Origin: Eledone cirrhosa
Lineage: Eukaryota
NCBI GenBank assembly: GCA_964016885.1
Contig: OZ024741.1
Location: forward strand, 216,690,001-216,754,000
DNA length: 64,000 bases
Reading direction: 5' to 3'
Shown here: positions 6,820 through 60,755 of the stretch, in pieces
How the letters are laid out: each line of letters begins with the position of its first letter
Position numbering within the stretch: position 1 is the first letter of the stretch
Notes under the pieces: generated by a model
The model's input: only the letters and a program-made list of their open reading frames with translations
Told to the model about the DNA's origin: nothing
Databases searched by the model: none
Position numbers and translations under genes: made by a program

Positions 6820-7413
6820 AGGGTGTTAAAGTTTGCTTGAAGCATTGTGAAATGTGTAAAATACGTAGTTTAGAAAGCCACAACAATGCAGAGGGAAATC
6901 TCGAGGTAGGAAGTGAATGATAGATAAGAGAAATAGGAGAAAGTGAAAATTGAGAGAGACAAAGATGAAAACAAAACAAAGGTAGAAGGGTTACCGTAGT
7001 GGAGATTTAATCCCAATATTTCTGGCTCACGCCCATCAACGGGGGAAAGTTCCAAAAGGGGGGGAACAAGCCAAGCGGAGAAAGTTGTGATGTCGTTAAA
7101 ACAGGAATGCCGTTATGGGGAGAAAATTATTTAAAATTTAAAAGAGGGAAAGAATGCGCGTGCGCGCGATAGGCTGTGGCAAAAGCTACTGACCAAATGG
7201 GTTAAATCAAGAACTTTCGTTGATGGGCGTGAGCCCGAAATATTGGGATTAAATCTCCACTACGGTAACCCTTCTACCTTTGTTTTGTTTTCATCTTTGT
7301 CTCTCTCAATTTTCACTTTCTCCTATTTCTCTTATCTATCATTCACTTCCTACCTCGAGATTTCCCTCTGCATTGTTGTGGCTTTCTAAACTACGTATTT
7401 TACACATTTCACA

Positions 7414-10053
7414 ATGCTTCAAGCAAACTTTAACACCCTCTTATCATTACACCTGAGCCAGGACTTGTTTGCACCCATAATGGACCTATTCAGACTATAG
7501 GAGAATCGTGCCAAACTCGGTTGCCAAATTACCTTCTTAAAACGCTGCCTAAAGAACAACATCATTCCAACCACCATCAGGAATATACATCTACCCGAAT
7601 GTTTACGATCACCATCCTTCGAAAACACCATCCGCCACATTCAACGCACGTTTATCAAGAAAATACTACGACACAACCACCACCAACTGTGACTCCTTAT
7701 ACAAACGCTTTCCAAGCACATAGATCGTATAGCTCCAACCCTCACCCCTGACCACCAGGTCCAGGAAATACGCAAAGCTATCGATCAGTGTTACCACACC
7801 AGAGTCAAATATGATAAACAGCGCCTTATACGGAAATACGAATGGACTGTAAACAAATACTACAATGACAACATCCGCTCCCACAGACGGACCGACTACA
7901 ACCACACCAGGGGCAACAGCTATACAACACCCTCCGCTACACCCCCCAACATCGATCTACCTACCAACGATGCTTCACACCTCGTTACCGACCTAACCGG
8001 TACCCTCACCAACGACGGACTCGAACTTCTGCGCCTCGGACCCAAGTTCATCATTACACAGCGTCTCGATGATAGACTGAAACTCGACATCGAAACCAAC
8101 TTCTGTCGGACAGCATATCAACTGAAATGGCTAACCGCCATCCAAAACAACACCGAGATCGATTACAACCCCACAACCCACCCCACACTCCCCACGTATC
8201 ACCTCGACAACCCACTCCACCCCCACCCACCAACCACGAACTTGACACTAAACTACTCAGGTTGAAACATTCTATCTCTAACATCCTTTCCCAACACACA
8301 CACACACACAATAAACGCAACCTCACCAATGCACAATTTAATACTCTCACCAACCTAAGATCCAGGAACCTTGTGTACCTTCCCTCTGACAAGGGGAAAG
8401 AATTCTGTGTCATCTCGAGAGAGACCTACAACAACTTAGCTCTCCAACATCTTAATGACCACAGCCTCTACTCGAAAGTCACAGGGACCTCCTCGACTCT
8501 AATCGAGAAAGGCATTAACACCATATGGACTAACATCTGTGTCCAACGAAAACTGCCAAAGAAGGTAAAAAACAACATAATGACTCGAAACAGCAAACTA
8601 CCCACCTTCTACCACCTGGTTAAAACACATAAACAAGGACCCGATTTGAAAATCAGGCCCATTGTCTCTAGCGTGGAGGGCCCACTCTACAAAATATCGT
8701 GGCTGCTCTCCACACTACTGAAACCCATTCTACACACACTACCAGCCCACGTCTGCAGCCCAAAGGAGGTCTTGGAGCGACTACACCATCTGGCGCCCAA
8801 CACCAGAAAGGACAACGGTTATGCCTTCAGTCTTGATGTGGTCGCCCTTTATACCTCCGTACCAGCATCCCCAGCTGTCGACCTGTTGACCGAACGAGTC
8901 CGAGCATCTAACTTACACTGCTTCGGACTCACACACATGGACATCCACCAACTCCTCTCCTTCGTTGTGGATAATGCACTCTTCAATTTCCTCGGCCACA
9001 CGTACAAACAAATCTCTGGGCTACCTATGGGCTCTAGTCTGTCCGGCATACTTGCGATCTCGTACATGGACCGCCTGGAACGCAAGGCACTCAATACCTG
9101 CCAACCCAACGCCGTCGCTGTTCTACTCCAGATACGTTGATGACATCCTGATACTTACTTCTTCCCGGGAGATGGCGAATGAAATTCACCAAATCTTCAA
9201 CGATACTGACCATCACGTCGATTTCACCATCGAACACCCAGGAGAAGACGGGTCACTCGCCCTCCTCGACTTCCGTATCAACATCTCGGAAGAAGGAGAC
9301 ATAAACACCACCTTCTACCGCAAAGCAGCGTGCAAGGACTTATTTGTGCATTACAACTCAGCCCTCCCCAACAACGCTAAAAGAGGCTATGTCCTAAATG
9401 AACTGACACGGATCACTAACAGATGCAGCGACCCGATGGGTGGTCTCACCCATACCACGCAATTCCGTAATCTACTCAGGTCTAATGGTTATCCCAAGCG
9501 ACTGATTAACGGAATTAGAGACCCCAGACCCAGTAGACAGACACCCACTAGAAACTTAAATAAAAGCAGGTGCTTCTTTAAAATCCCCCACCTGAGTGAA
9601 TATACCACGAACGCCATCCGCAGGGCCATACGGACGGAGGGACTTGACATACATTTGGCCCACACAGGACCTTCGCTGCGAAGATGCCTCTCCAACAAAC
9701 TCGACGAGTCAGATGGGACGTGTTCCCTCAGCAACTGCCCGATACGGGGGGCAGATTGCCTACGCACCTATGTCGTATATAAGATTCAATGCGATAAATG
9801 TAACAAGTTTTACATAGGTAGCACCATCCGACCCCTACATGTTCGTATCAAGGAACATATCAACACCAACGCATCTTCCTTCCGTAAACACATCCTTAAA
9901 TGCGGAAACCCATAGGGTAGACCCTTGGTCACAGTCCTAGCGACTGAACGCAGCATCGGATCCTTAAGGATAAAGGAAGCACTTGTTATTAAGAACCTCA
10001 GACCCCCACTTAACAACCGGGCTGAGAGAAATGAGCTGACATGGCTAACTTAA
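7414..10053 (+). pseudogene. PLE reverse transcriptase + GIY-YIG endonuclease, disrupted
   Basis: Motifs KTHK..IRPIVS, SLDVVALYTSVP, QISGLPMGS, RYVDD, LLDF and VVYKIQC..C..FYIGST.R.L..RIKEH. In-frame stops at 7498 and 9913, plus frameshifts (e.g. ~9110). Confidence 0.9.
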
Positions 10054-10660
10054 CCATAGTGACCATTCAGACCCCTTTACGGCCTGCTATTTTCACACAC
10101 ACGCACGTATATGCATACCCATACGCATACACACACACATCTATATTTATACACGCACACATGTTTTTACAACCTACCACCTTTCACACCCTTTGATTTC
10201 CAGCTTCTACAGCCCACTATCTTTCACACACACACGCACTCACACATATACACACACAGTTACACACACATGTATACCCATACGCTTACACACACACATC
10301 TATATTTATACACGCACACACGTTTTACAACCTACCACCTTTCACACCCTTTGATTTCCAGCTTCTACAGCCCACTATCTTTCACACACACACACACACT
10401 CACACATATACACACTTACACATATACACACAGTTACACACACATATATATTTACACACACATATTTTACGGCTTTCACACGCTAGCGCACCGTCTTGAT
10501 TTAACCCATTTGGTCAGTAGCTTTTGCCACAGCCTATCACGCGCACGCGCATTCTTTCCCGCTTTTAAATTTTAAATAATTTTCTCCCCATAACGGCATT
10601 CCTGTTTTAACGACATCACAACTTTCTCCGCTTGGCCTGTTTTCCCCCCTTTTGGAACTT

Positions 10661-10696
10661 TCCCCCGTTGATGCGCGTGAGCCCGAAATATTGGGA
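10661..10696 (+). ncRNA. Minimal hammerhead variant (core CCGUUGA) in PLE pLTR; copies at 7011-7046 (-) and ~7218-7248 (+)
   Basis: tccc-CCGTTGA-t-g(g/c)gc-GTGA-gccc-GAAA-ta-TT-ggga, with a GNRA-capped stem II and palindromic AATATT. Confidence 0.6.
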
Positions 10697-10843
10697 TTAA
10701 ATCTCCACTACGGTAACCCTTCTACCTTGGTTTTGTTTTCATCTTTGTCTCTCTCAATTTTCACTTTCTCCTATTTCTCTTATCTATCATTCACTTCCTA
10801 CCTCGAGATTTCCCTCTGCATTGTTGTGGCTTTCTAAACTACG

Positions 10844-14479: not shown

Positions 14480-17400
14480 TATTATTATTATTATTATTAT
14501 TGTTATTGTTATTCCTTGAATCTCAGTCATTGATGTTGGTTAACTGAAAAGTCCGTTGGATTGAATATCAAGCCACTACCTGCAGCCTCAGATATTCAGG
14601 ACGTATCGGAGGGTTCTTGCTGTTCCAAGCAAGCATGCCTTTTGAAGCGTTCCAAAAAGCGTGAAGGGGCCGATTTTCTTTAACCATCCCTGGAAACCTT
14701 TGGAGATAGTCCCCAGTGCGCCTATGACAATCAGGATCACTTTGACTTCATGGCAGTTCCAAATCCTTTTCACCTCCCACTTTAGGTCCTGGTATCGGTT
14801 AATTTTCTCCCTCTCCTTCTCTTGCACTCTCGTGTCGAACGGGCAGGCCACATCCACAATCAGGCACGATCTTTTTTCTTTGTCCACAACCACCAGGTCA
14901 GGTCTATTGTGTTCCAGTTTTTTGTCCGTCTGTATCCTAAAATCCCACAGCACCTTCACCTGACTGTTCTCCATCACCGCCTCTGGTCTATGCTCATACC
15001 ATTTCTCAGAATGTGGTAGATTGTTTACTTTGCACAGGTGCCAGTGGATCACCCTGCCCATCACATCGTGTCTCCAGCCCTTATAGTGGGTCTGGGCTAG
15101 GTGTTTACACTCGGACACAATGTGAGCCACAGTCTCCTCACTCTCTCCACAGATCCTGCACAGTGGGCTAGCCTCCTCCTTGTAGATATGGTGCTTCAAC
15201 CACTTCGTTTTGAGGGCCTGCTCCTGCGCAGCCATTAGCATTCCTTCTGTAGCCTTTTTGAGGTCTCCTCTTCTCAACCAGTTCCATGTCTGTGGATCTC
15301 TAAATTCAGTTTTCTCAAAGAAGGTACTATGAAGGGATTTTCCCTTAAGGCTGCTCTTCCTCCTTGATGTTATTTCCTCCTTGGACATCCCCTGGCCTAC
15401 TGTCCCCTCCTTCAGTACAGTTCTGAGCATTGGCTCCTTACTATAGGTCACGTATTTGTATAGGTTGTTTTTCTCCATCTGAACACAGTCCTCTATGCTG
15501 ATAAGACCTCTTCCACCCTCAGATCTCCTTAGGTAGAGTCTATCGACATCACTCCTCTTGTGGAACATGTTGTAGATAGTCAATAGCTTCCTAGTCTTCC
15601 TATCCATTTCTTTTTGTTCAGCAACATTCCATCTCAGAATTCCCGCACTGTACCTAATAATAGACACAGCTCGGGAATTTACTGCGCTTATGGCATTTCT
15701 GCTGTTCAGATGTGACTTCAATACGCTCCTTACTCTCCGAATGTATTCAGTTCTTAACAATTCCTTCATTTTTTTGTTCTTTATGCCATCAGCCTCCAGA
15801 ACGCCCAAATACTTGTATCCTTCCTCAGAGTCAATTTCCTTTATCATCTCACCTGTTGGTATCTGGATCCCGTTACTTCTGCTCAACCTACCCCTCTTCA
15901 TCACAATGACTCCACACTTACTAATACCAAATTACATACATATATCATTGCTGAAAATACGGACAGTGTCAACAAGCACATCCAACTCCTTCTCACTCTT
16001 CCCGAAGAGCTTAAGATCGTCCATGAAGAAGAGGTGATTGATGGTAAGCTCTCCCCTTCCCAACTTGTATCCTGCTCTCACTTTTCGCAGCATAATGGTC
16101 AAGGGCATCAGGGCAAGGACAAACAACAGAGGGGACAGGCTATCTCCCTGGAAGATACCTCTCTTGATCTTCACGCTTCCCAAGGATACTCCAGTTGATG
16201 TCAACTCTGTCTCCCAGGACCCCATACTCCTGCCCAGCAACTGTCTGATGTTATCTGCCACCCTGAAGACCTCCAGGCTTTTGGTGATCCAGGAATGAGG
16301 CACCATGTCAAATGCCTTTCTGTAGTCTATCCATCCCATGGCAAGATCAGTGTGTCTCCTCCTGCAATTCCCCATTACCATCTTATCAATAAGCAACTGG
16401 TCCTTTGTACCACGTGACTTCTTTCGGCATCCTTTCTGTTCGTCCGGTAACAAGTTGTTTGTGTGGAGGTGATGGTAGATTTCCTCAGACACAATGCTCG
16501 TCAACAGTTTCCACATTACGGGAAGACATGTGATAGGTCTATAGTTGGTAACATCATTACCCTTGATTCGGTCTTTCATTATCAGAACTGTGGTACCTTT
16601 TGTCAACCACTCTGGCACCTCACCCGACACCAAGCAGTCATTGAACATGGCCGTCAGCTTCGGGTGGAGGGATGTTAAATGTTTAATCCAATACCCCTGC
16701 ACACCATCTGGGCCTGGTGATTTCCAGTTGGTTAGTTTTTTGGCTTGCCCCTTAAGAGTTTCAACTGTGATACTCAAATCAGTCTGTTGTTGTGTCTTCT
16801 CACCGATCTCCCTCTGTACTGTCTCAATCCACCCTGCCTGGGCATTGTGTCTAACATCCTGCTCCCATATTCCTCTCCAGAATGTTTTAGCTTGTTCCGC
16901 CCCAGGGATCAAGTCGTTGCCTCTTTCTTTCCCCTCAAGCTGTCCAAACAGCATCTTCTGGTTGTTGTCGAACATGCGGTTCTGTTTATACTGACTGACT
17001 CTGTTCTCGTATCGCCTGATTTTGGCACTCTTTGCTACAATGCGTTGCTTCAATTCCTCTATGATAATATTTAGCTTTTTACTCCTAGTTTTGTATTTTA
17101 TTTCCAGTCTATTTTTAGTGCCTATGTTTTTTAGTGTCCCATTCAGTAGTGACTCAAGCTTTCCTATGTCATTTCTATTTCCCCGATTTGCCCACTCAGT
17201 CGCTTCTTCCACCACGGCTCTGCTCTTTCTTGTCTGTTGTTTCCTCTCGCTTTTATACCAAGTAGTTTCCTCACCGTATTTGCTGTTGCTTTGAGGATAT
17301 TGTTGCACTGGTGAAGACTCCTCGCCTCAAGGTATGGGATGACTTTGTTTACCTTAGCTGTTGTTTCTTTTAACTTTTTCCTGTCTACAAATCTTAGGTT

Positions 17401-18679
17401 CATAGGTCTCCCACTATCATTGTTCAATTCATCTACCACTAGATTTAGGATGTCAACCGAATCTTGTCCTAGCCCGTCAGCATTCATCTCCTCAGTGGCC
17501 GTATCTCTGTTCCAGGTATTATTTATCTCAGTATTCAGATCATTGTCTGCTTCAGGTGGTTCCTCCGTTCTCAGGACCTCCTCACCTTCATTTCCCACCG
17601 GCTCGCTTGTCTGGCATACTACACCCGCCATCTCCAAGCCATTCTCTCTGCTCAGTTCCTCCAGTTCCAGCTCGCTTATCCACCCATTAGTTCTTATTAC
17701 CCGAGCCTGCCCGGCCAATTTTTGTTCATCTAATTTAAATAAACCAATCTCGTTCCAGATGTTATGCATCCGTCTCCTGTAGCCCCTCTCCTTGGGGTTA
17801 CTTTTCAGGTAGCATTGCATAACAGTTCTATTCAATTCTTTCGTCCAGTTGGTTCTGGCCCCTTTCCTTCCTCTTCTTCCTCCAACATCAGCAGTATTTG
17901 GTTGACAGTCAGGTTCCTGCTGCTGAGCCAGGGGGCACCTGTTGGGTGAGAGTCTGTCACATGACGTTCTAGTCTCCATTTCACCGTTATTCGAACTGTT
18001 TATGTTCGATATTTAAACACTCTTATCGAGGATTGGCGAATGTATGTTTACATAGCCATCTGTGGATCCGCCATCCCACTTGGCCCTTGTGTGGCATTAT
18101 CACCACGCTGTATACGAACACACATAAACAAACAAACATACGGGCAGAAAGGGCCCCAAAAATGGATAAGCATAAGTTTCATTGTAATGTAGTATTCGAA
18201 TGTCTGACTTAGTTTTTGTTTAAGTTTTACTTTTTCCCCCCTCTTCTCTGTCCGTCCGCCTGCTTCCCTCTTCATTCTTATTTTCTTTACGTTTTTGGGG
18301 TTTCTTTTTTTGTTTTTGTTTTTCTCTGTTTGTTTTTCTCGTTTTTTGCTGTTGTTGCTGTGCTGCTTTGGTTTTGTTGTTTGTTTTTTCTTTTTTCTTT
18401 TGAGTCTATCTATATATTTTGATGCCTTCCTCTTTGTTAGTAGTAGGGATTCTATAATGTGGAAGTAGTAGTAGCAGCCAGCAGGGAGAAGTGGGAGAGG
18501 GCGGCGTTGGCGATACTGAGACAGTGGTGGTGGTGATGTCGATACCGAGGCAGTGGTGGCGGTGATGCGACCGTATTACTGTAGTGATGGTGCTGTAGCG
18601 GTGGCAGCAGCAGTGAAGGAGTCAAGGGGTGGTGGCGGCGGTGATGGGATAGTGGTGGTAATGATGGCCGTAGTGAGCG

Positions 18680-30911: not shown

Positions 30912-33900
30912 GTTATTGTTATTCCTTGAATCTCAGTCATTGATGTTGGTTAACTGGAAAGTCCGTTGGATTGAATATCAAGCCACTACCTGCAGCCTCA
31001 GATATTCAGGACGTATCGGAGGGTTCTTGCCGTTCCAAGCAAGCATGCCTTTTGAAGCGTTCCAAAAAGCGTGAAGGGGCCGATTTTCTTTAACCATCCC
31101 TGGAAACCTTTGGAGATAGTCCCCAGTGCGCCTATGACAATCGGGATCACTTTGACTTCATGGCAGTTCCAAATCCTTTTCACCTCCCACTTTAGGTCCT
31201 GGTATCGGTTAATTTTCTCCCTCTCCTTCTCTTGCACTCTCGTGTCGAACGGGCAGGCCACATCCACAATCAGGCATGATCTTTTTTCTTTGTCCACAAC
31301 CACCAGGTCAGGTCTATTGTGTTCCAATTTTTTGTCCGTCTGTATCCTAAAATCCCACAGCACCTTCACCTGACTGTTCTCCATCACCGCCTCTGGCCTA
31401 TGCTCATACCATTTCTCAGAATGTGGTAGATTGTTTACTTTGCACAGGTGCCAGTGGATCACCCTGCCCATCACATCGTGTCTCCAGCCCTTATAGTGGG
31501 TCTGGGCTAGGTGTTTACACTCGGACACAATGTGAGCCACAGTCTCCTCTCTCCACAGATCCTGCACAGTGGGCTAGCCTCCTCCTTGTAGATATGGTGC
31601 TTCAACCACTTCGTTTTGAGGGCCTGCTCCTGCGCAGCCATTAGCATTCCTTCTGTAGCCTTTTTGAGGTCTCCTCTTCTCAACCAGTTCCATGTCTGTG
31701 GATCTCTAAATTCAGTTTTCTCAAAGAAGGTACTATGAAGGGATTTTCCCTTAAGGCTGCTCTTCCTCCTTGATGTTATTTCCTCCTTGGGTATCCCCTG
31801 GCCTACTGTCCCCTCCTTCAGTACAGCTCTGAGCATTGGCTCCTTACTATAGGTCACGTATTTGTATAGGTTGTTTTTCTCCATCTGAACACAGTCCTCT
31901 ATGCTGATAAGACCTCTTCCACCCTCAGATCTCCTTAGGTAGAGTCTATCGACATCACTCCTCTTGTGGAACATGTTGTAGATAGTCAATAGCTTCCTAG
32001 TCTTCCTATCCATTTCTTTTTGTTCAGCAACATTCCATCTCAGAATTCCCGCACTGTACCTAATAATAGACACAGCTCGGGAATTTACTGCGCTTATGGC
32101 ATTTCTGCTGTTCAGATGTGACTTCAATACGCTCCTTACTCTCCGAATGTATTCAGTTCTTAACAATTCCTTCATTTTTTTGTTCTTTATGCCATCAGCC
32201 TCCAGAACGCCCAAATACTTGTATCCTTCCTCAGAGTCAATTTCCTTTATCATCTCACCTGTTGGTATCTGGATCCCGTTACTTCTGCTCAACCTACCCC
32301 TCCTCATCACAATGACTCCACATTTACCAATACCAAACTGCATACATATATCACTGCTGAAAATACGGACAGTGTCAACAAGCACATCCAACTCCTTCTC
32401 ACTTTTCCCGAAGAGCTTAAGATCGTCCATGAAGAGGAGGTGATTGATGGTAAGCTCTCCCCTTCCCAACTTGTATCCTGCTCTCACTTTTCGCAGCATA
32501 ATGGTCAAGGGCATCAGGGCAAGGACAAACAACAGAGGGGACAGGCTATCTCCCTGGAAGATACCTCTCTTGATCTTCACGCTTCCCAAGGATACTCCAG
32601 TTGATGTCAACTCTGTCTCCCAGGACCCCATACTCCTGCCCAGCAACTGTCTGATGTTATCTGCCACCCTGAAGATCTCCAGGCTTTTGGTGATCCAGGA
32701 ATGAGGCACCATGTCAAATGCCTTTCTGTAGTCTATCCATCCCATGGCAAGATCAGTGTGTCTCCTCCTGCAATTCCCCATTACCATCTTATCAATAAGC
32801 AACTGGTCCTTTGTACCACGTGACTTCTTTCGGCATCCTTTCTGTTCGTCCGGCAACAAGTTGTTTGTGTGGAGGTGATGGTAGATTTCCTCAGACACAA
32901 TGCTCGTCAACAGTTTCCACATTACGGGCAGACATGTGATAGGTCTATAGTTGGTAACATCATTACCCTTGATTCGGTCTTTCATTATCAGAACTGTGGT
33001 ACCTTTTGTCAACCACTCTGGCACCTCACCCGACACCAAGCAGTCATTGAACATGGCCGTCAGCTTCGGGTGGAGGGATGTTAAATGTTTAATCCAATAC
33101 CCCTGCACACCATCTGGGCCTGGTGATTTCCAGTTGGTTAGCTTTTTGGCTTGCCCCTTAAGAGTTTCAACTGTGATACTCAAATCAGTCTGTTGCTGTG
33201 CCTGCTCACCGATCTCCCTCTGTACTGTCTCAATCCACCCTGCCTGGGCATTGTGTCTAACATCCTGCTCCCATATTCCTCTCCAGAATGTTTTAGCTTG
33301 TTCCGCCCCAGGGATCAAGTCGGTGCCTCTTTCTTTCCCCTCAAGCTGTCCAAACAGCATCTTCTGGTTGTTGTCGAACATGCGGTTCTGTTTATACTGA
33401 CTGACTCTGTTCTCGTATCGCCTGATTTTGGCACTCTTTGCTACAATGCGTTGCTTCAATTCCTCTATGATAATATTTAGCTTTTTACTCCTAGTTTTGT
33501 ATTTTATTTCCAGTCTATTTTTAGTGCCTATGTTTTTTAGTGTCCCATTCAGCAGTGACTCAAGCTTTCCTATGTCATTTCTCATTTCCCCGATTTGCCC
33601 ACTCAGTCGCTTCTTCCACCACGGCTCTGCTCTTTCTTGTCTGTTGTTTCCTCTCGCTTTTATACCAAGTAGTTTCCTCACCGTATTTGCTGTTGCTTTG
33701 AGGATATTGTTGCACTGGTGAAGACTCCTCGCCTCAAGGTATGGGATGACTTTGTTTACCTTAGCTGTTGTTTCTTTTAACTTTTTCCTGTCTACAAATC
33801 TTAGGTTCATAGGTCTCCCACTATCATTGTTCAACTCATCTACCACTAAATTTAGGATGTCAACCGAATCTTGTCCTAGCCCGTCAGCATTCATCTCCTC

Positions 33901-35765
33901 AGTGGCCGTATCTCTGTTCCAGGTATTATTTATCTCAGTATTCAGATCATTGTCTGCTTCGGGTGGTTCCTCCGCTCTCAGGACCTCCTCACCTTCATTT
34001 CCCGCCGGCTCGCTTGTCTGGCATACTACACCCGCCATCTCCAAGCCATTCTCTCTGCTCAGTTCCTCCAGTTCCAGCTCGCTTATCCACCCATTAGTTC
34101 TTATTACCCGAGCCTGCCCGGCCAATTTTTGTTCATCTAATTTAAATAAACCAATGTCGTTCCAGATGTTATGCATCCGTCTCCTGTAGCCCCTCTCCTT
34201 GGGGTTACTTTTCAGGTAGCATTGCATAACAGTTCTATTCAATTCTTTCGTCCAGTTGGTTCTGGCCCCTTTCCTTCTTCTTCTTCCTCCAACATCAGCA
34301 GTATTTCGTTGACAGTCAGGTTCCTGCTGCTGAGCCAGGGGGCACCTGTTGGGTGAGAGTCTGTCACATGACGTTCTAGTCTCCATTTCACCGTTATTCG
34401 AACTGTTTATGTTCGATATTTAAACACTCTTATCGAGGATTGGCGAATGTATGTTTACATAGCCATCTGTGGATCCGCCATCCCACTTGGCCCTTGTGTG
34501 GCATTATCACCACGCTGTATACGGACACACATAAACAAACAAACACACGGGCAGAAAGGGCCCCAAAAATGAATAAGCATAAGTTTCATTGTAATGTAGT
34601 ATTCGAATGTCTGACTTAGTTTTTGTTTTTTAAGTTTTACTTTTTCCCCCCTCTTCTCTGTCCGTCCGCCTGCTTCTCTCTTCATTCTTATTTTCTTTAC
34701 GTTTTTGGGGTTTCTTTTTTTGTTTTTGTTTTTCTCTGTTTTTCTCGTTTTTTACTGTTGTTGCTGTGCTGCTTTTGTTGTTTGTTTTTTCTTTTTTCTT
34801 TTGAGTCTATCTATATATTTTGATGCCTTCCTCTTTGTTAGTAGTAGGAATTCTATAATGTGGAAGTGGTAGCCAGCAGAGACTAGCGGCGTTGGCGATA
34901 CTGAGACAGTGGTGGCGGTGATGTCGATACCGAGGCAGTGGTGGAGGTGATGCGACCGTATTACTGTAGTGATGGTGCTGTAGCGGTGGCAGCAGCAGTG
35001 AAGGAGTCAGGGGGTGGTGGCGGCGGTGATGGGATAGTGGTGGTAATGATGGCCGTAGTGAGCGGTGGCGGTGAAGGTGAAAATGCTGTTGTGTTTAGTG
35101 TACACAGATGATGGGGTGGGTGGTGTATCTAGTTTCTGGTGTTGGTGAGTTTCGCTGTCCTATATAGTGTAGCCAGAGGAGAGGAGGGGGGGTTCTTCTT
35201 CTTCCATTTATAGCCATTTTATTTTTTTTTTTTTTGGATATACAGTGTACAATACAAAGTTGAATATTTGAATATTTGAGCCGTATTACTGTAGTGATGG
35301 TGCTGTAGCGGTGGCAGCAGCAGTGAAGGAGTCAAGGGGTGGTGGCGGCGGTGATGGGATAGTGGTGGTAATGATGGCCGTAGTGAGCGGTGGCGGTGAA
35401 GGTGAAAATGCTGTTGTGTTTAGTGTACACAGATGATGGGGTGGGCGGTGTATCTAGTTTCTGGTGTTGGTGAGTTTAGCTGTCCTATATAGTGTAGCCA
35501 GAGGAGAGGAGGGGGGGGGGGGTTCTTCTTCTTCCATTTATAGCCATTTTTTTTTGGATATACAGTGTACAATACAAAGTTGAATATTTGAATATTTGAG
35601 CCTTATAACAATATATTTTGGGTCCGAATTTTTTGGGGCTCAAGCCGGGTGCTTTACGTAGCATTTGTACTAAGAGTTGTTATTTCACAAATGATTTAAA
35701 TATGTTAAAAATTCAAAACTTACGGGAGCGATTTCATGACCTCCGTCACCTCGTGCGTATTCTTC

Positions 35766-47641: not shown

Positions 47642-47835
47642 AACGAAGGAAATGTGGTAAGGAACCAGGTGGACCATAACGCACCAAAGTATTCAATACT
47701 TAGGGTAGTAGAGTGGGTAATAGGAACAAGTAAGACCCCGACGGCTGAGCTCAAGCCGTTTCGACGGCTAATTCTGGACAGAATTAGCCGTCGATACGGT
47801 TTGAGCTCAGCCATCTGGGTCTTACTTGTTCCTAT
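47642..47835. mobile_element. Fold-back mini-copy of the Naiad-type PLE end
   Basis: Same layout as 44403-44610, with a slightly different turn point. Confidence 0.8.
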
Positions 47836-48037: not shown

Positions 48038-48085
48038 ATAAAATAACAGGAGGCTGGACTGGTGTAATTCCTTAAAAGGTTTATT

Positions 48086-48143
48086 ATACTATGATCATTT
48101 CAATGACCGGGTTCAGTATAAATCCGGCGACATCATCAGGTAT
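48086..48143 (-). ncRNA. Type I hammerhead ribozyme
   Basis: atac-CTGATGA-tgtcgccgg...ccggtcatt-GAAA-tgatca-TA-gtat followed by AATAAA. Palindromic TGATCA stem III. Confidence 0.8.
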
Positions 48144-48696
48144 TCAAAATATAACAAAGGATATAATAGACAAAATCCATGGGGCTGAAAATCAGAGACA
48201 TGAGGGCCACCGAACATTTAGCAGCTTCTAGCCCGGTCAGCCGCCCCCAAGTGTTGATTATTAAGTCTACTTATGTCCATCTGGTGAAGGGGCGTAGGCT
48301 TATAGTGTACTACTACCACCCCGTCACAGACAGAGGCCAGCGGTGAGATTAGGTTACAATCAAGCTGGTCATTAGTGCTAGAAAGTGCCGCGAAAAATAT
48401 TTTTTCAAAGAACATATATCTTTAACAAAGCTATATATAGTAATATATAGTGGGCGTCTGCATGGTATAATGTATGGACAGAAATTACGATTAACAATTA
48501 GAATCGTTAAATTTATGTTTAGAGTTAGAAGATGCCATTTAAGATGAAATTACAAAAATAAGGTTTAGGTTTAAGGTTGTGAGATTTAGTTAAAGAATTT
48601 ACAGAAGGAGGCTTTTATGAAAAGGTTTAAGTCTATTATAGATAGTCACGATAAATTTCAGGGTAGAATATAGTGTAAAGATTAAGCCCATGCTTA

Positions 48697-48916
48697 GCGG
48701 TCAATAACCGGCGACGTTGCTGACCCCCGGCCAGCCCTGGGGCCAACGGTGTGTCAGCCGTTCTGAGTATTATCGTCTAGCGAAAGAAATGGAAATTCAT
48801 TTTTCCGATCACTCCAGGAATGTTAACTGTCTTAGGCGTCGGGTGTGTTAGCGGGAAGTCCGCTACCGTCGGCTGGCTATTGTATATACTAAACGATTAC
48901 TAGTTATTCACACTGT
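48697..48916 (+). ncRNA. Unknown structured-RNA motif, copy 1
   Basis: Shares invariant blocks and covarying helices with 49001-49206 (see findings). Confidence 0.6.
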
Positions 48917-49000
48917 TGGGGGATTAGTTAAGTGCTAGTAGAAGGAGGCAAGACAAAGTTAATAGTTATGATTAAGCCTAGAATTTAAAGGTACTGTTTG

Positions 49001-49206
49001 GCGGTTAATAACCGGTGTCGCGGCGGGTTCCAAGTCCGACAGGGCCCCGTTCCGAGTATTATCGTTTACCGAAAGAAAGGGAAATCTATTTTTCCAAGCA
49101 CTCGAGGAAGGCTGATCGACCCGAGCGCCTGGCTGGCAGTCTGGAAAGCTGCCACATCCGTCGGATCATCACGTGTACCAAGCGATTATTAGTTATTCAC
49201 ACCCGT
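49001..49206 (+). ncRNA. Unknown structured-RNA motif, copy 2
   Basis: As copy 1. Confidence 0.6.
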
Positions 49207-49566
49207 GATGTGAAGTTGAAAGTGGTAAAATCTGATGAAATGTTAGTTAGTCCCCAGTTAGTCCGGGTTATATGTAGTGTGATTCCTGGGTGGGTAGGGG
49301 GAGTGACTAAAGATACACAGATACAAGGGTACAGAGAGTAATATTCTAGGGTCGTGTGCTAATGAGTACAAGGATACATATATAATGAGAGTAAAGCGAG
49401 TAAATAAATACATAAATAAAAACATAAGTAAAATACATAAATAAAATGCAGTCATACCTAGGTTGGTGATGTAGGGAGTAAAAAGGAAGTATATAGGAAC
49501 ATATCGAAGAAATCAAAATACAGAGACGTCTGAAATCGCTCATCAGAATGAAAATTTAATTTAAAT

Positions 49567-49639
49567 TTTCATTCTGATGAGCGATTTCAGACGTCTCTGT
49601 TGAGCTCGTCTGTCTTCGTGAAACCTCTGGCAAATGGAA
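49567..49639 (+). ncRNA. Hammerhead-like motif, probably inactive (GCA at the cleavage triplet), preceded by its own inverted copy
   Basis: tttcatt-CTGATGA-gcga..cagacg...cgtctg..tcgt-GAAA-cctctg-GCA-aatggaa. Palindrome ~49520-49600. Confidence 0.6.
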
Positions 49640-49729
49640 TAATCGTCTTATGTTGTTTATTACATAATTAAATAGTTCTGTGACATACATAGAGCACTCC
49701 CTTTTCCTTTACCCTTCCCACGGAAATAC

Positions 49730-49776
<47 letters not shown>

Positions 49777-49957
49777 ATACTTGGGGAAAATCATATTCTT
49801 GTAATATTGGCAGAAATAATAACAGAACACACTCACTGTTTGGTTGGTTTTCGCTTCTGTATCTTTTATATCTCCATAGTTAATTTATTTGGCAATCAAT
49901 GTTTATCATTGACTGACCAGCGCTTAAAAATACAGATATAAATATATATATATAGTC

Positions 49958-50001
49958 TATCAAAGTTCTTTCGTTGCACATCTGCAACATCGTCAGTGGT
50001 A
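49958..50001 (-). ncRNA. Type I hammerhead-like motif
   Basis: tacca-CTGACGA-t-gttgca-gatg-tgcaac-GAAA-gaac-TT-tgata. Confidence 0.7.
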
Positions 50002-50062
50002 CTATTATGTTTCCTACTATTATGTTGTATTGTATGTCTACGCCATTTTTATATATATACAT

Positions 50063-55203: not shown

Positions 55204-58200
55204 TTACAGATATATACTCAGAGTCGGCCCATTCACTCGGGCCATTCTTGCTTCTCTCACCCATCTTTCAACAAAATGCTGGGAAGAGAGCACTTCCTTC
55301 TCTACTCTGATTTTCCTTTTCAAATGAAATTTGAAAAAGTCAATCAGAGCATCACCGAAGAGGTAAGTGCTCGTCTTCAGCCCTTTCAAACGTGTCCACC
55401 ATACTATCTCTTTCGCCATGGCCACCAGACAGATAAAAACTGCCTGCCCTTCCCGGCTAAAGGAGGAGGGCGGGGCAATCCTCACGATAGACTCAGATGA
55501 TAGCTGGATCCGTCCTAAACGCGACAGCAGGTGTTCGACATAAACCCACAAGTCAGCAATTTTCGGACACTGGACGAGTGCGTGCAGGACGGTTTCGTCG
55601 CCCTGCGCGCATCTCGGACATGCCCGGCTGACGGCACCTCCATGCCTGTAGAGTTTATCCCGAACTGGCAAGGCTCCTCGGTAGCACTGCCAGGCCAGAG
55701 ATTTCTGGAAGTTGTCCATAGGCCCTGGCCCGAAAGTTCTTCCGAAGAGATTGGCTAGTTGATTTTCGTCGACGCCTAGAGTTTCCCCAAGTACGTCGTC
55801 GCTCTTCCCCTCCACTAATCCTCTATAGAACGCCGAGGTGGAGTTTCCACCGATCACATTGCCCGATTGGTCGAGGGCTGTGAGCGCCTGAAGACATTCC
55901 AGTCTCCAGGCGCTCCCTCTCGGTCTTCGCTTGACCCAGGACTGCAGCTCCGTCAAGGAAACGAGCTGGGGAAAAACGCGTCTAGCAAACGGCGACCACA
56001 CCTGATCACCGTCGAGGAAGAGGTGGAGATGTCGTAGCCTGAGCGCGTGCCTGCGCATCATCAGCCACGGCATGCCCAGCCCTCCACGTAGCGGGTGTTG
56101 ACAACAGATGGACCGCCTGACCATCGGAGCACGTCCCTTCCACAAAAAGCGAAAGAGCAAACGCTCCAGCGCAGTCAGGCGAGGCTTAGGACAAGGTACG
56201 ACGGTTAGGCGGTAGCAGATGACAGACGCGATGTACGCGTTAGCCACCTCCGCTCGACCTTTCAGGGATAGCTTCCTCTCCGCCCATTTCTGGGTGAGAG
56301 AAGCCACCCTGCTCGTCACCTCGTCCCAGTTTTTGTCCGTCTGGAGGTCCGGACCGAACCAGACCCCTAGCAATTTAACCGGTCCGTCCGTCCAGCGCCC
56401 GACGACGCTGTTGGACGGCATGGACCTGCCTCTCCAGGTGCCGAGCTGCAGGCCCACTGACTTTTCCTGGTTGATCATTGCTCCTGTCACCGCTTCGTAT
56501 TCTCTTAGTGTAGTGCCGATCGCCTCGATGTGTTTGGCGTTCGACACCACTACAGTGACATCGTCCGCATATGCTGACACGGATCTTCCGCATCCTAGTT
56601 CGCGCGGGACTCCCCTCAACGTCTCCAGTTTGTGCAGTAATGGCTCGAGAGTCAATACGTACAAGAGGGACGAGAGGGGACATCCTTGGCGGACCGAGCG
56701 CATGATGTTGAACGGTTCCGACAGGTGACCGTTCACTCTCACCACAGAGCAGATGTCGCTGTGCATGGCAGCGATCCAGCCTCTGAAGACGGGCCCAAAG
56801 CCAGCCGCCCTCAGGACTGCCGCTAGGTAACGATGGTCGACCCTATCGAAAGCTTTCGACTGATCTAAATTGATCAAGGACCCACCCGTGCCAGGTTCCC
56901 TAGCTACCCTCTCTACGATGTATCGCATGAGGTGGAGGTTGTCGTGGATGGATCTGTCGGGAATGGCGCATGTCTGCGCCTCTCCCACCAGACCACCAAC
57001 GACAAGCGCCAACCTCTTTGCTAGCACCTTGGCCAAAATCTTAAACTCTGTGTTTAGCAGAGTTATGGGCCGGAAATTGTCTATGTTATCCCCCTTGTTC
57101 GGATCCTTTCTCAGCAGTGCCACCGCTCCTCGGCTCACAGAACTGGGAATTCTCCCGTTCTGTTGCCAGTTGCAGTAGACGTCCGCCAAGAGGCCTCCGA
57201 ACAAGTCTGGCATCTGTACGTAAAGTTCATAGGGCAGACCATCCAAACCAGGCGATTTACCCCTTGTGCAGCCAGTCATTGCCTCCCGTACTTCAGCGGC
57301 TGTTATCGGCTTTTCGCAACACTTCGCCTCAGTGGCCGAGAGCCGCGGCAGTCCGTCGAGGTAGACACTAAAGTCCATCCCTCTACCCGGCCCCCCGCTG
57401 CCCCCGAACAGCTGAGCGAAGTGTCGCTGAAAAGCTTCACACATTTGCCCGGGATCGAGTAGCATGCGCCCGTCGTGGTCCACCAAAGACCGGATCGTGG
57501 CTTTGTTGCCACGACGCGCCTCCGCCACTCGGGCCCATTGAACGGCTTTCGTCCCCTCGTGTCTGAGAGCACGCACCCTAGCTCTGACAACGCAGCCTTC
57601 GTGCTTTGCATTGAAGAATTGGTCAAGGGCCAATTTCGCCGCAAGCACGTCGGTCGCAATGCCTTTGCTAAGCGCCTCGTCTAATTTTCTAACTAGTTCT
57701 CCCTCTGCTCTATTTTTCTCTATTGCTAAAGCCTTACTAAACCTAATCGATTCTATTCTAATCGCTCTTTTCAGAGCAAACCACCACTTGTTGTTGACGA
57801 TGGCCCCCGTCAACGCCCGCTTAACTAGTTCGCTAATCCGGTCTCTGTAGGCCTTGCGCGCTGGTAAGGACGCGTTTAGCTTCCAGTAGCCGGGTCCTCG
57901 TCTATGAAGCCTATCTAAGTCAAGCACACAGATCACGAATTTGTGGTCCGTGTAGCTGACTATCTTGAATTGTGGACAGCCTATGCTAGACCTATCTATT
58001 TCCCTACAAAATACTCTATCTAGATATGATCTGGATGACCCTATGCGGTTTGTCCAAGTCCACATTGGCACATTCGGGAAATCCAATCGGTACCTGTCAG
58101 ACAGTTCAAAACGCCTGAGCAGGTTGGTGAGGCTCTTGCACCCTCCACCCCTATCCGCTAATCCCACACAGTCCCAGCGTGCATCTAAGATCCCGTTCCA

Positions 58201-58623
58201 GTCGCCCACTAACACTAAAGAGCGCGACGTTCCAAGAAAGGTCTCCAGACGCCGGAAGAAATCAGGCCGCCCTGCTCCTGTCGGGGCATAGACGGCCACT
58301 AGCCTGAAAGCTTGCCCGTCTCCGCTGGTCACGTCCAGCACCACCAGCTTACCCTCTGGGTCCAGGAAGATGGCCCGTATGGCGAGATCCAAACCTCTCC
58401 GAAAAAGCACAGCAACTCCTCCACCCGATCCAGGACGGCTGGGAGATGCGTACACATCGTAGCCGCCGAAGATCGGTGCGAAGGCCCGTGCTTCGGAGAT
58501 TCTGGTCTCGCTGATGGCCACTACATCTATGTTTAGTGACCTGAGGTCGTTGAGCAGGTGACCCTGCTTCCATGACGACCCCAAGCCACGCGCATTTATG
58601 CTGCCTATTCTGAGTGAGGTCAT
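55204..58623 (-). CDS. ORF2: AP endonuclease + reverse transcriptase + CCHC domain (1139 aa)
   Basis: SINARGL, ISET, VYAP, GDWN, YLDR, TDH; KSPGLDG, FRPITLLN, LDQSKAFD, VRQGCPLS, YADD; CPRC...ETVLHALVQC. Confidence 0.95.
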   Translation of the reverse strand: MTSLRIGSINARGLGSSWKQGHLLNDLRSLNIDVVAISETRISEARAFAPIFGGYDVYASPSRPGSGGGVAVLFRRGLDLAIRAIFLDPEGKLVVLDVTSGDGQAFRLVAVYAPTGAGRPDFFRRLETFLGTSRSLVLVGDWNGILDARWDCVGLADRGGGCKSLTNLLRRFELSDRYRLDFPNVPMWTWTNRIGSSRSYLDRVFCREIDRSSIGCPQFKIVSYTDHKFVICVLDLDRLHRRGPGYWKLNASLPARKAYRDRISELVKRALTGAIVNNKWWFALKRAIRIESIRFSKALAIEKNRAEGELVRKLDEALSKGIATDVLAAKLALDQFFNAKHEGCVVRARVRALRHEGTKAVQWARVAEARRGNKATIRSLVDHDGRMLLDPGQMCEAFQRHFAQLFGGSGGPGRGMDFSVYLDGLPRLSATEAKCCEKPITAAEVREAMTGCTRGKSPGLDGLPYELYVQMPDLFGGLLADVYCNWQQNGRIPSSVSRGAVALLRKDPNKGDNIDNFRPITLLNTEFKILAKVLAKRLALVVGGLVGEAQTCAIPDRSIHDNLHLMRYIVERVAREPGTGGSLINLDQSKAFDRVDHRYLAAVLRAAGFGPVFRGWIAAMHSDICSVVRVNGHLSEPFNIMRSVRQGCPLSSLLYVLTLEPLLHKLETLRGVPRELGCGRSVSAYADDVTVVVSNAKHIEAIGTTLREYEAVTGAMINQEKSVGLQLGTWRGRSMPSNSVVGRWTDGPVKLLGVWFGPDLQTDKNWDEVTSRVASLTQKWAERKLSLKGRAEVANAYIASVICYRLTVVPCPKPRLTALERLLFRFLWKGRAPMVRRSICCQHPLRGGLGMPWLMMRRHALRLRHLHLFLDGDQVWSPFARRVFPQLVSLTELQSWVKRRPRGSAWRLECLQALTALDQSGNVIGGNSTSAFYRGLVEGKSDDVLGETLGVDENQLANLFGRTFGPGPMDNFQKSLAWQCYRGALPVRDKLYRHGGAVSRACPRCAQGDETVLHALVQCPKIADLWVYVEHLLSRLGRIQLSSESIVRIAPPSSFSREGQAVFICLVAMAKEIVWWTRLKGLKTSTYLFGDALIDFFKFHLKRKIRVEKEVLSSQHFVERWVREARMARVNGPTLSIYL

Positions 58624-58658
58624 GTTTAAAATAGAGTGGAAAAGATGGGAAAGACCAC

Positions 58659-60755
58659 TTACCGTACTTTTGGTAGAGGAGGGATGGTTTTTACATCCCT
58701 TTTCACTTGATCGTCTGGTGAAGGGACCGTTGAATCGTCCCTTCGGCTGGTCGTCGGCTCTTCTAAGAGAATGTCTGAATATACTCTTCGATTAATGGTT
58801 CCTCCTAGGTCCCTGAAATCACCAACTGCGTTGGGGAATTTCGTTTTAATGTTTGTGTATTGTTTCTGTGCTATTTTTAGCAGTCTTATGTTAGTTGGCG
58901 TTTTGATTGGTGCTGGTATTATGTAGTCCTGTTGTGAAATGTCTGTGTGTTCAATTATGTAAGTCATTAGTTTCTTGTTGTGTGTGTTTATTGCCGTGCA
59001 TTTGTTTTTCTGGGAGTGGGGTGTGGTTCTGCTATTTTCTTGTCGTTGTTGCTGGGTGTGTGTGTTTTGTTGTTGTGTTTGCGATGTTGGTGCTTGTGGT
59101 GGTGGTGTTGAAGGTGTTGTTGGCGGTGGGGTTGTCGCCGGTGGTGATGGTGGTGCTGGTGTGGGTGGTGATGGTGTTGGTGGTGTTGCTGCTGTGGGTC
59201 TCTTTGCAGTAGACTTTACCCTTTTCTCATTTCTTTCCTCCCTTTTCAAAGGCGACGATGCGCTGCTTCTGCGTTTGTGCCTTCTTGAGACCTTTTGCCA
59301 TCCCTCTCCCACCTCACACTCCATGTCTGATTCTGTAAGGTCGGGGAGGGGTACCAGCTCCACTCTTTCACTTGTTGTTGTTGGTGATGTTTGCACTGGA
59401 GTCTCTGTTGCAGCTGCATTTGGTATTGCTGTTGTTGTTGTTAATATTTCCACTGCTGCTGCTGTCTTTGATTTCCGTGGAGTGGGTATGGGTGCCACGG
59501 ACCTATCGTTCCTGGTTGCCGCTTGTCCTGTTGCTGGTAGCCGTGGAACCGGATTCGGGAGGAGGGGGGTTTTCTCCTTTCTCATGGTCTTCTCGTTGCA
59601 GAAGGCCCTGAGGTGAGTCTTCGATCCACAGCGAAAGCATTTCGGGCGTTTGCCCTCAACACTTATGGGCAGTTGAGTGCCGTTATCGAAGTCTATCACA
59701 TCCGGGATAGCTTCGATGCACTCCTGGTTGGTTTGGATTAGCATCTCAATGGAGGAGCCGACCCAATCTTCTCTTACTTTTTTCTGTACTTGCAGTACAG
59801 TTGTTTTGTCCTCGATTCCGACGAGGACAGACGCGGCCAGCCAAGAAGGGGTCATTCCGGGGGGGACGTGGGTCAGTTTGACCCTCACAATTTTTTGCCC
59901 GCAGTAGGAGGGCACCAACACCATTTCCTCGCTCCTTAGGGTCACTACTGATTGGGCCTTTGCCTCCTGGGGTGTGGCAAAAAGTACGTCTACGGTGGCG
60001 TATTTTTTGCCTCGGGTGATGTGCGTTTTCCTCTGCCACACAGACCCCAAGGCTTTTTGTATTTGGGCCTCTGTGGCTCTTTCCACCCTACGGGATTTTG
60101 TACTTACTGTACGGTACGTGACCGTACAGTGCTCTTGGGTTTCGAAAAAATTTTTCGCTGCCTTGCAGATTGCTCGGTGTCCGTTCTTTGTCACCATCTT
60201 CTTCGCTTCCTCTAATTCCTCATTTGTTATGAGGATTGTTTCCAGGTTTTTCGCAATACCTGCAAATGAGATTGGTTTTTCTCTGCTGTTGTTGTTGTCG
60301 TCAGAGCTGCTGGTACTTTTGTTGTTGCTGCAGGTACTACGACTACTGCCTCCGCCGCTGTTGCTGTGGTTGTTGTTGGTGTTGCTGCTGCTAATGCTGT
60401 TGTTGTTTATGCTGCTGGTGATGCTGTTGCGGCTGCTACTGTTGTTTTCATTGTCACTGTTGCTGTTGTTATTACGGCTGCTACTGCTATTATTCCTGAC
60501 CTCAGACGAATGAACTGGGTTTTCGTATTTCCCGCACACCTGTTTCGTCGCTGTCGTCGTCGTCGTGGAGAAACCTTGCACGCTTTGCACGAGACTTTTC
60601 TTTTCTTTCGTCGCTTGCGAAAGAGAAGGGAGGGAGAGAGACACATTTAAAGAAGGGAGGGAGAGAGACAATCTTCTCTCTGCTGTAGTGATGATTGAGG
60701 AAGAAGAAGACGGAATGAGTGGGAGTGACGTATGAAATTTCTTTTTCGTAGCCAT
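58659..60755 (-). CDS. ORF1: nucleic-acid-binding protein with CCHC zinc knuckle
   Basis: CFRCGSKTHLRAFC and low-complexity N/S and P/T tracts. First ATG at 60755. Confidence 0.85.
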   Translation of the reverse strand: MATKKKFHTSLPLIPSSSSSIITTAERRLSLSLPSLNVSLSLPSLSQATKEKKSLVQSVQGFSTTTTTATKQVCGKYENPVHSSEVRNNSSSSRNNNSNSDNENNSSSRNSITSSINNNSISSSNTNNNHSNSGGGSSRSTCSNNKSTSSSDDNNNSREKPISFAGIAKNLETILITNEELEEAKKMVTKNGHRAICKAAKNFFETQEHCTVTYRTVSTKSRRVERATEAQIQKALGSVWQRKTHITRGKKYATVDVLFATPQEAKAQSVVTLRSEEMVLVPSYCGQKIVRVKLTHVPPGMTPSWLAASVLVGIEDKTTVLQVQKKVREDWVGSSIEMLIQTNQECIEAIPDVIDFDNGTQLPISVEGKRPKCFRCGSKTHLRAFCNEKTMRKEKTPLLPNPVPRLPATGQAATRNDRSVAPIPTPRKSKTAAAVEILTTTTAIPNAAATETPVQTSPTTTSERVELVPLPDLTESDMECEVGEGWQKVSRRHKRRSSASSPLKREERNEKRVKSTAKRPTAATPPTPSPPTPAPPSPPATTPPPTTPSTPPPQAPTSQTQQQNTHTQQQRQENSRTTPHSQKNKCTAINTHNKKLMTYIIEHTDISQQDYIIPAPIKTPTNIRLLKIAQKQYTNIKTKFPNAVGDFRDLGGTINRRVYSDILLEEPTTSRRDDSTVPSPDDQVKRDVKTIPPLPKVR

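Follow-up and report, generated by a model that had tools for sequence, protein, structure and literature searches.

The stretch of Eledone cirrhosa DNA analysed here, 64,000 nucleotides long and called the window, carries on its minus strand a non-coding mobile element that includes two copies of a structured RNA motif. The features of this element and of its immediate surroundings are the following.

48038-49524, minus strand: 5'-truncated non-autonomous Penelope-like element of family A, with a sharp 3' end, variable 5' ends, terminal repeats and no long ORF
48086-48143, minus strand: type-I minimal hammerhead in the pseudo-LTR, recognised by sequence and kept across families
48202-48248, minus strand: separate conserved hairpin directly 5' of the pseudo-LTR, degenerate in the window copy; its pairing persists in the family consensuses, including G.U pairs when read on the minus strand
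48692-48913, minus strand: downstream motif copy (c1), with a 5' leader at 48913-48895, a closing helix (48894-48888 with 48698-48692) and a long predicted rod
48761-48820, minus strand: c1 core, a predicted three-way junction with the stem UUCC-UN-GAGUG/UACUC-GGAA and the hairpins GGAAA-6nt-UUUCC (48806-48791) and UUUCG-NUARA-YGAWA (48785-48771)
48996-49202, minus strand: upstream motif copy (c2), in which a deletion of 15 nt at 49046/49047 is private to this copy
49050-49109, minus strand: c2 core, predicted to form the same three-way junction as c1
49520-49731, plus strand: separate short Penelope-type insertion with a palindrome (49520-49600) and a degenerate hammerhead (49567-49639), bounding the motif element

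The original prediction had placed the motif in an ORF-less, Penelope-like segment, and this placement stands, the family consensus containing no long ORF. A search of the 3.0-Gb genome returned many copies of the window element at 88-97% identity. Most of them end sharply at the equivalent of window position 48038, usually against (TA)n, and their opposite end is variably truncated and often carries a repeat of the 48038 end, inverted or in tandem. The full family A unit measures about 2.09 kb and its head-to-tail junction is seamless, without spacer; units are 2.08-2.09 kb long in families A and B and about 2.8 kb in family E. Partial tandems, inverted 5' copies, 5' truncation and (TA)n targets are marks of Penelope-like elements, according to the accessible part of PMC8557442. 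The hammerhead proposed at about 48086-48143 is present on the minus strand, with CUGAUGA at 48139-48133, GAAA at 48101-48098 and the palindromic helix III UGAUCA, its type being assigned after the description in the portion of PMC4209133 that was available. The template RNA corresponds to the minus strand and carries this type-I hammerhead near its 3' end. With a hammerhead in its pseudo-LTR, partial tandems, truncation and (TA)n targets, the window element is a non-autonomous Penelope-like element. Inside the units there is neither a long consensus ORF nor a match to reverse transcriptase (RT), where autonomous Penelope elements have an ORF for RT and GIY-YIG endonuclease. In two small samples, no RT ORF lay upstream of 30 pseudo-LTR matches, and a long upstream frame was found at 3 of 174 hammerheads, none being Penelope-like by tblastn. 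No autonomous partner sharing the pseudo-LTR thus came to light in these samples, and the motif may be either an innovation of the parasite or an inheritance.

The hammerhead at 49567-49639 had been taken as the second flank of the element. It belongs instead to a separate insertion that cuts the window copy at 49524, as none of the 11 other copies reaching this position continues into that sequence. Other mobile sequences are found nearby. A decayed ORF-bearing Penelope-like element lies at 7000-10840 (plus strand), with RT and GIY-YIG pieces at 8076-9912 and its own pseudo-LTRs; its ends differ from those of the motif element and it holds no motif match. At 49770-50060 (minus strand), a further ORF-bearing Penelope family is represented by its 3' end, which has no obvious hammerhead. 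This family adjoins motif elements in some ten loci, in one case (L109) by direct fusion, an adjacency that probably arises via a shared (TA)n target. The ORF-bearing Penelope family found beside several copies has a 3' end unlike that of the motif element and uses the same (TA)n target, which leaves it at most a candidate partner. LINE-type RT frames are located at 14588-18012, 31507-34419 and 55204-58791 (minus strand); the last spans 1195 aa and includes domains for endonuclease, RT and zinc binding. Finally, a short palindromic repeat fragment with partial matches in other loci lies between TA tracts at 47700-47830 (plus strand).

The motif is not confined to family A. A core pattern gave 1873 exact matches in the genome, compared with none for the reversed-pattern control, and these matches fall in more than ten families. 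DNA and pattern searches identified A1, A2, B, C1, C2, D1, D2 and the young family E, to which F, G, I, J and K (consensuses from 2-7 copies) and the old family H, with copies 70-82% alike, are added. One pattern match (L353) is ended by a repeat and does not score with the covariance model described below. The motif lies 0.6-1.4 kb 5' of a pseudo-LTR; the nearest downstream pseudo-LTR is on the same strand for 48 of 56 core matches and never on the opposite one, the remaining eight having none in view. The full-length families examined carry two motif copies, and full-length copies spanning both motifs are common. A tree of 28 cores shows three separate duplications (H-a/H-b, c1/c2 and E1/E2). 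Family E has two c2-type copies and no c1, the E1/E2 duplication restoring a pair. The 5' block of the motif is entirely missing from D-c2, E and F-c2. In DNA or unlabelled SRA runs from one organism, DNA read depth peaks only on both cores and on the pseudo-LTR.

Two diverged direct copies with shared blocks had been described at 48697-48916 and 49001-49206, each with GATTAAGCC on its 5' side as read on the plus strand, and all of this was seen again. The strand on which the motif folds is nevertheless the other one. It had been read as antisense to the 48086 hammerhead, with most wobbles appearing as G-U on the plus strand, whereas minus-strand folding z-scores and an excess of G.U over A.C place it in sense with the hammerhead. 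Window copy 1 folds with a z-score of -3.61 on the minus strand versus +0.11 on the plus strand, and a well-preserved copy 2 with -3.67 versus -0.30. Among 24 family consensuses, the energy is lower on the minus strand in 23, but the z-score is better there in only 16 (mean -2.3 versus -1.1 for the plus strand), with E, F-c2 and c2-D2 favouring the plus strand. Read on the minus strand, the five core helices of 16 family consensuses comprise 333 Watson-Crick pairs, 34 G.U, 6 A.C and 11 other cells, the helix registers in this count being chosen by the analyst and the cells being non-independent. One of the A.C mismatches follows a swap in family E and two occur in c1 of D and G.

Most families, folded independently on the minus strand, converge on one architecture. 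The motif is predicted to be a sense-strand, nested rod of about 200 nt capped by a Y-shaped three-way junction. The closing helix GUUUGGU/GCYAARY would be followed by a long irregular rod and then by the junction, closed by UUCC-UN-GAGUG...UACUC-GGAA and containing two 5-bp hairpins, GGAAA-AAUAAA-UUUCC and UUUCG-NUARA-YGAWA, with the linkers CUY, NYUUC and a single base. A nested rod with a three-way-junction cap accounts for the conservation, without the double-pseudoknot topology proposed before, neither crossing pairing of which survives comparison of the families. Many of the helices cited for that topology use letters private to the decayed window copy. Among 55 A-family copies of c1, some from overlapping loci, cggcg occurs in 1, gctgac in 2, ccgcta in 1 and ctaaacgat in 4; among 52 copies of c2, likewise with some overlap, aagcgat occurs in 1, ctgcca in 2 and actcgaggaa in 1. 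The gggccc helix side adjoins the 15-nt deletion, which is present in 1 of these 52 copies. As read off the alignment, 5 of 14 full-length consensuses keep the closing helix aataac/gttatt whole, and the others break it without compensation. Alternative helices of the 5' block (UARUAAUCR/YGGUUAUUG, UUUGG with loop F and UUUGG with an internal YYRRG) share positions with the nested helices. The third fits 13 of 14 consensuses but is weak and wobble-rich; the 5' UUUGG may thus be a switch or form a single pseudoknot with this alternative partner.

Support for the two parts of the fold differs in kind. A covariance model built from 12 A copies gave 109 matches in 71 loci. On the alignment fitted to this model, which is the analyst's own and holds related sequences, 87.7% of arm cells are paired versus 82.6% after shuffling (33-62% in slid controls) and two-sided change affects 25 of 35 pairs versus 16.3 after shuffling. 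Family-level swaps include UUCC/GGAA to CACC/GGCG, UUUCG/UGAAA to UCUCG/UGAGA and GUGGCGG/CCGCCGC to GUGACGG/UCGUCAU. On this alignment, the covariation resides in the arms. Hardly any change is seen in the core helices GAGU/ACUC and GGAAA/UUUCC, so that the innermost helices are supported by complementarity and not by covariation.

The conservation of the core bears the mark of selection. Over both cores (122 nt), family A differs from B, C1, C2 and D1 at 3, 5, 5 and 9 positions, respectively, whereas the rest of the unit differs by 11.3%, 20.3%, 21.3% and 28.5% (Fisher p 1e-3 to 4e-8). The core of about 60 nt thus diverges by 2.5-7% between families versus 11-28% elsewhere, a level of constraint that matches the hammerhead region. 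The arms diverge at the background rate or faster, yet keep their pairing. After insertion the constraint is lifted: in 16 inserted A copies, several of which were picked by similarity to copy 2, non-CpG change amounts to 4.0% in the core and 4.1% elsewhere. As the core is constrained between families and decays like background once inserted, selection acts on active source elements during mobilisation, not on inserted copies, and the motif therefore serves mobilisation rather than the host. No segment of the old family H is better kept than the motif (76% over 237 nt, compared with 72% over 168 nt for the pseudo-LTR), and the core is nearly unchanged there. A stable core in an element whose pseudo-LTR drifts fits a partner evolving more slowly than the element's own machinery. 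The earlier reading of a structured RNA motif under selection within a Penelope-like, ORF-less element is supported on these grounds. The motif is a real, selected RNA module of non-autonomous Penelope-like elements, apparently undescribed, for which a function can be proposed.

The absence of an Rfam match, also stated in the original prediction, was found again: the motif has no match at the gathering score in the window, and loose E-values return only chance microsatellite and hairpin matches in the window and six better-preserved loci. Rfam misses the 48086 hammerhead as well, which limits the sensitivity of these negatives. Exact patterns gave 0, 1, 55 and 13 stretches in IMG/VR, 49 stretches in JGI metagenomes, 1 in GTDB genomes and one 21-nt match in phages, none of which scored with the profile or covariance model; these viral, metagenome and prokaryote collections hold few animal genomes. 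Short resemblances to twister, pistol, group I P5abc, RNase P, rRNA, Y RNA and tRNA concern one family only or lack the defining loops and were not retained; the scans that bear on them are those of Rfam, which gave no match. The literature covered, short of subscription papers, supplements and repeat databases, contains no description of such a motif. The element itself may already be present in a repeat library.

Among the functional guesses made earlier, a protein-binding RNA fits best, whereas an IRES or a nuclease-blocking RNA fits poorly in an ORF-less element. We tentatively propose that the motif binds a slowly evolving host protein which would escort the non-coding RNA to the RT of an autonomous element, a reading to which we give somewhat less than an even chance. 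We infer in vivo formation of the fold and recognition of the invariant cap by a protein, more precisely by a host factor, the last point because the core stays invariant while the pseudo-LTR drifts, because ORF-less elements need the motif and because it has been doubled repeatedly. The element would be transcribed from a tandem or pseudo-LTR promoter, and the arms, free in sequence while keeping their pairing, would present the cap. The escort could consist of export, stability or ribosome docking, and the bound factor would preserve the RNA and hold it close to freshly synthesised RT-endonuclease. Priming would then take place at the conserved tail past the hammerhead, as in other Penelope elements, and two caps would be better than one. 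The accessible part of one report indicates that purified Penelope protein binds and primes in vitro within the first 172 nt after the ORF start, at the hammerhead and tail (PMC11167929). A conserved tail beyond the hammerhead is separately conserved here; as it matches this RT-binding and priming site, that role is plausibly already filled and the internal motif would be an extra signal. The Alu domain, which acts through SRP9/14, offers a precedent for such an escort, as described in the portion of PMC11760393 available.

The main rival, which we regard as unlikely though well ahead of the remaining ones, makes the three-way junction a second site that would directly bind or activate the Penelope RT-endonuclease, comparable to CR4/5 of telomerase RNA. 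The same selection and polarity data fit it, the motif is predicted to form a three-way junction that includes a short hairpin, and Penelope RTs are sister to telomerase RTs in the accessible sections of PMC8557442. Against this stand the purified protein that needed just the 172 nt mentioned above, as far as that source was accessible, together with the separately conserved equivalent tail, and the absence of the motif both from the ORF-bearing Penelope copy at 8076-9912 and, as far as they were read, from the 3' ends of another ORF-bearing family. Besides, the small loop has one conserved U where P6.1 has two.

A further rival makes the cap a new self-cleaving or processing ribozyme, or a nuclease substrate, with cuts in the 5' arm that would yield short transposition templates. 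The junction letters are invariant and 5' breakpoints crowd near the core: of 21 flagged among 153 core matches, 6 were put down to family divergence and removed; of the 15 left, 12 (one maybe a chimera) lie 9-31 nt 5' of the core, a counting window chosen post hoc. Moreover, four independent E/F insertions (L327, L336, L389 and L383) share one starting GGCG, which lies 18-19 nt 5' of the core. However, the breakpoints are scattered across more than 20 nt and vary between families without a single site, and the unrelated hairpin near the pseudo-LTR shows comparable crowding (7 of 19 uncensored ends), so that RT stalling or snap-back at any hairpin explains them. The frequency of full-length copies across both motifs and the absence of ribozyme family matches also speak against cleavage, which we consider improbable. 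To the same low degree, the motif could be a translation element (IRES-like or a cap-independent enhancer) inherited from an autonomous parent, where in a tandem array it would lie upstream of the ORF that follows. Its position 0.6-1.4 kb 5' of the pseudo-LTR and its pyrimidine-rich junction would suit this, all the more as an RNA cut by a hammerhead would lack a cap; but selection persisted through many ORF-less families, and neither a motif-carrying parent nor an Rfam IRES match was found.

A slightly smaller probability still is given to the invariant core being a DNA element, either an internal promoter or a palindromic factor site, with incidental folding. The core helices are indeed invariant and do not covary, and the palindrome GGAAA-N6-TTTCC resembles Rel/NFAT-type sites; on the other side, long-range arms keep their pairing with a strong bias of G.U over A.C on one strand, and H-b alters the palindrome spacing while keeping the hairpin. 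The plus-strand (antisense) double pseudoknot of the original prediction is largely refuted and very improbable: 8 of 24 family consensuses fold better on the plus strand, some Y-pairing changes give G.U there in family C and one plus wobble exists in E, but shuffled sequences fold as well as the window copy does on its plus strand, the helices rest on copy-private letters and the crossing pairings are absent from D, E, F and H-b.

Known systems resemble the motif element in part. Penelope-like elements of the Penelope/Poseidon/Neptune type share with it the type-I minimal hammerhead with a palindromic helix III, the tail beyond the hammerhead, partial tandems, inverted 5' copies, (TA)n targets and 5' truncation; the motif element differs from them in having no RT or GIY-YIG ORF and in carrying a duplicated internal structured motif. 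Animal non-LTR retrozymes, as presented in the accessible parts of PMC7229834 and bioRxiv 10.64898/2026.07.22.740005, are likewise non-coding, tandem-capable, Penelope-derived and equipped with a type-I hammerhead. Their short tandem units of about 0.2-0.4 kb contrast with the 2.1-2.8 kb found here, and the motif element is mostly dispersed and 5'-truncated, with an internal module under separate selection.

As a functional analogy, the Alu domain of Alu SINEs, bound by SRP9/14, is also structured and doubled and aids the capture of a foreign RT, the motif being putatively protein-binding. Unlike the Alu domain, the motif is internal and not 5' terminal, and its loops AAUAAA and NUARA are not complementary and cannot pair with each other. 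A 7SL origin was rejected: comparison with the host 7SL RNA revealed no similarity, the best match being 10 nt long (E 0.78). The host genome holds a tandem array of about 20 7SL (SRP) RNA genes with 1.2-1.4 kb spacing (G000:C12:42.10-42.13 Mb).

CR4/5 of telomerase RNA has a three-way junction with a short hairpin, a shape that is predicted for the motif, and belongs to an RNA used by a telomerase-related RT; the motif lacks the two conserved U of the P6.1 loop and shows no template. Protostome telomerase RNAs lack P6.1, according to the part of PMC8480181 available. The double-pseudoknot RNAs, namely HDV-like ribozymes and the dicistrovirus IGR IRES, were set aside, as two conserved crossing helices are not found in the motif and it has no Rfam match. 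In unspliced retroelement RNA, the retroviral CTE, RTE and RRE form long rods in which one part is conserved and binds protein; duplication occurs in some cases. The motif is similar in its predicted long rod with a conserved part and in its duplication; it differs in showing no Rfam match and no two-fold internal-loop symmetry.

Taken more broadly, with the two leading readings combined, the motif would represent a new eukaryotic class of structured RNA. This Y-capped module would let non-coding Penelope parasites hijack a telomerase-like RT, either via a host escort, as an independently evolved equivalent of the Alu domain, or by docking to the RT like the three-way junction of telomerase RNA, and it would boost cargo insertion by Penelope RTs; we rate this as approaching an even chance. 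The RNA signals described for Penelope elements in the accessible literature covered are the hammerhead and the priming tail only, the motif being a third. Its evolutionary signature is clean, as it is constrained in active lineages, neutral after insertion and re-duplicated, and it comes in many natural variants. If it binds RT, it bears on the origin of telomerase-type RNA recognition; if its partner is a host factor, it parallels the Alu domain by convergence.

Two further resemblances concern the core loops. The loop of the first core hairpin (49080-49095, minus strand) reads AAUAAA, the polyadenylation signal, in all c2-type consensuses and varies in c1-type cores (AAUUAA, AACUAA, AAUUGA or AAUCGA). 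In c1-type cores (48771-48806, minus strand), the A-rich loop, a pyrimidine tract and CUAG resemble a 3' splice site, with a branch-like AACUAAU in family C; the AG is missing from c2-type cores.
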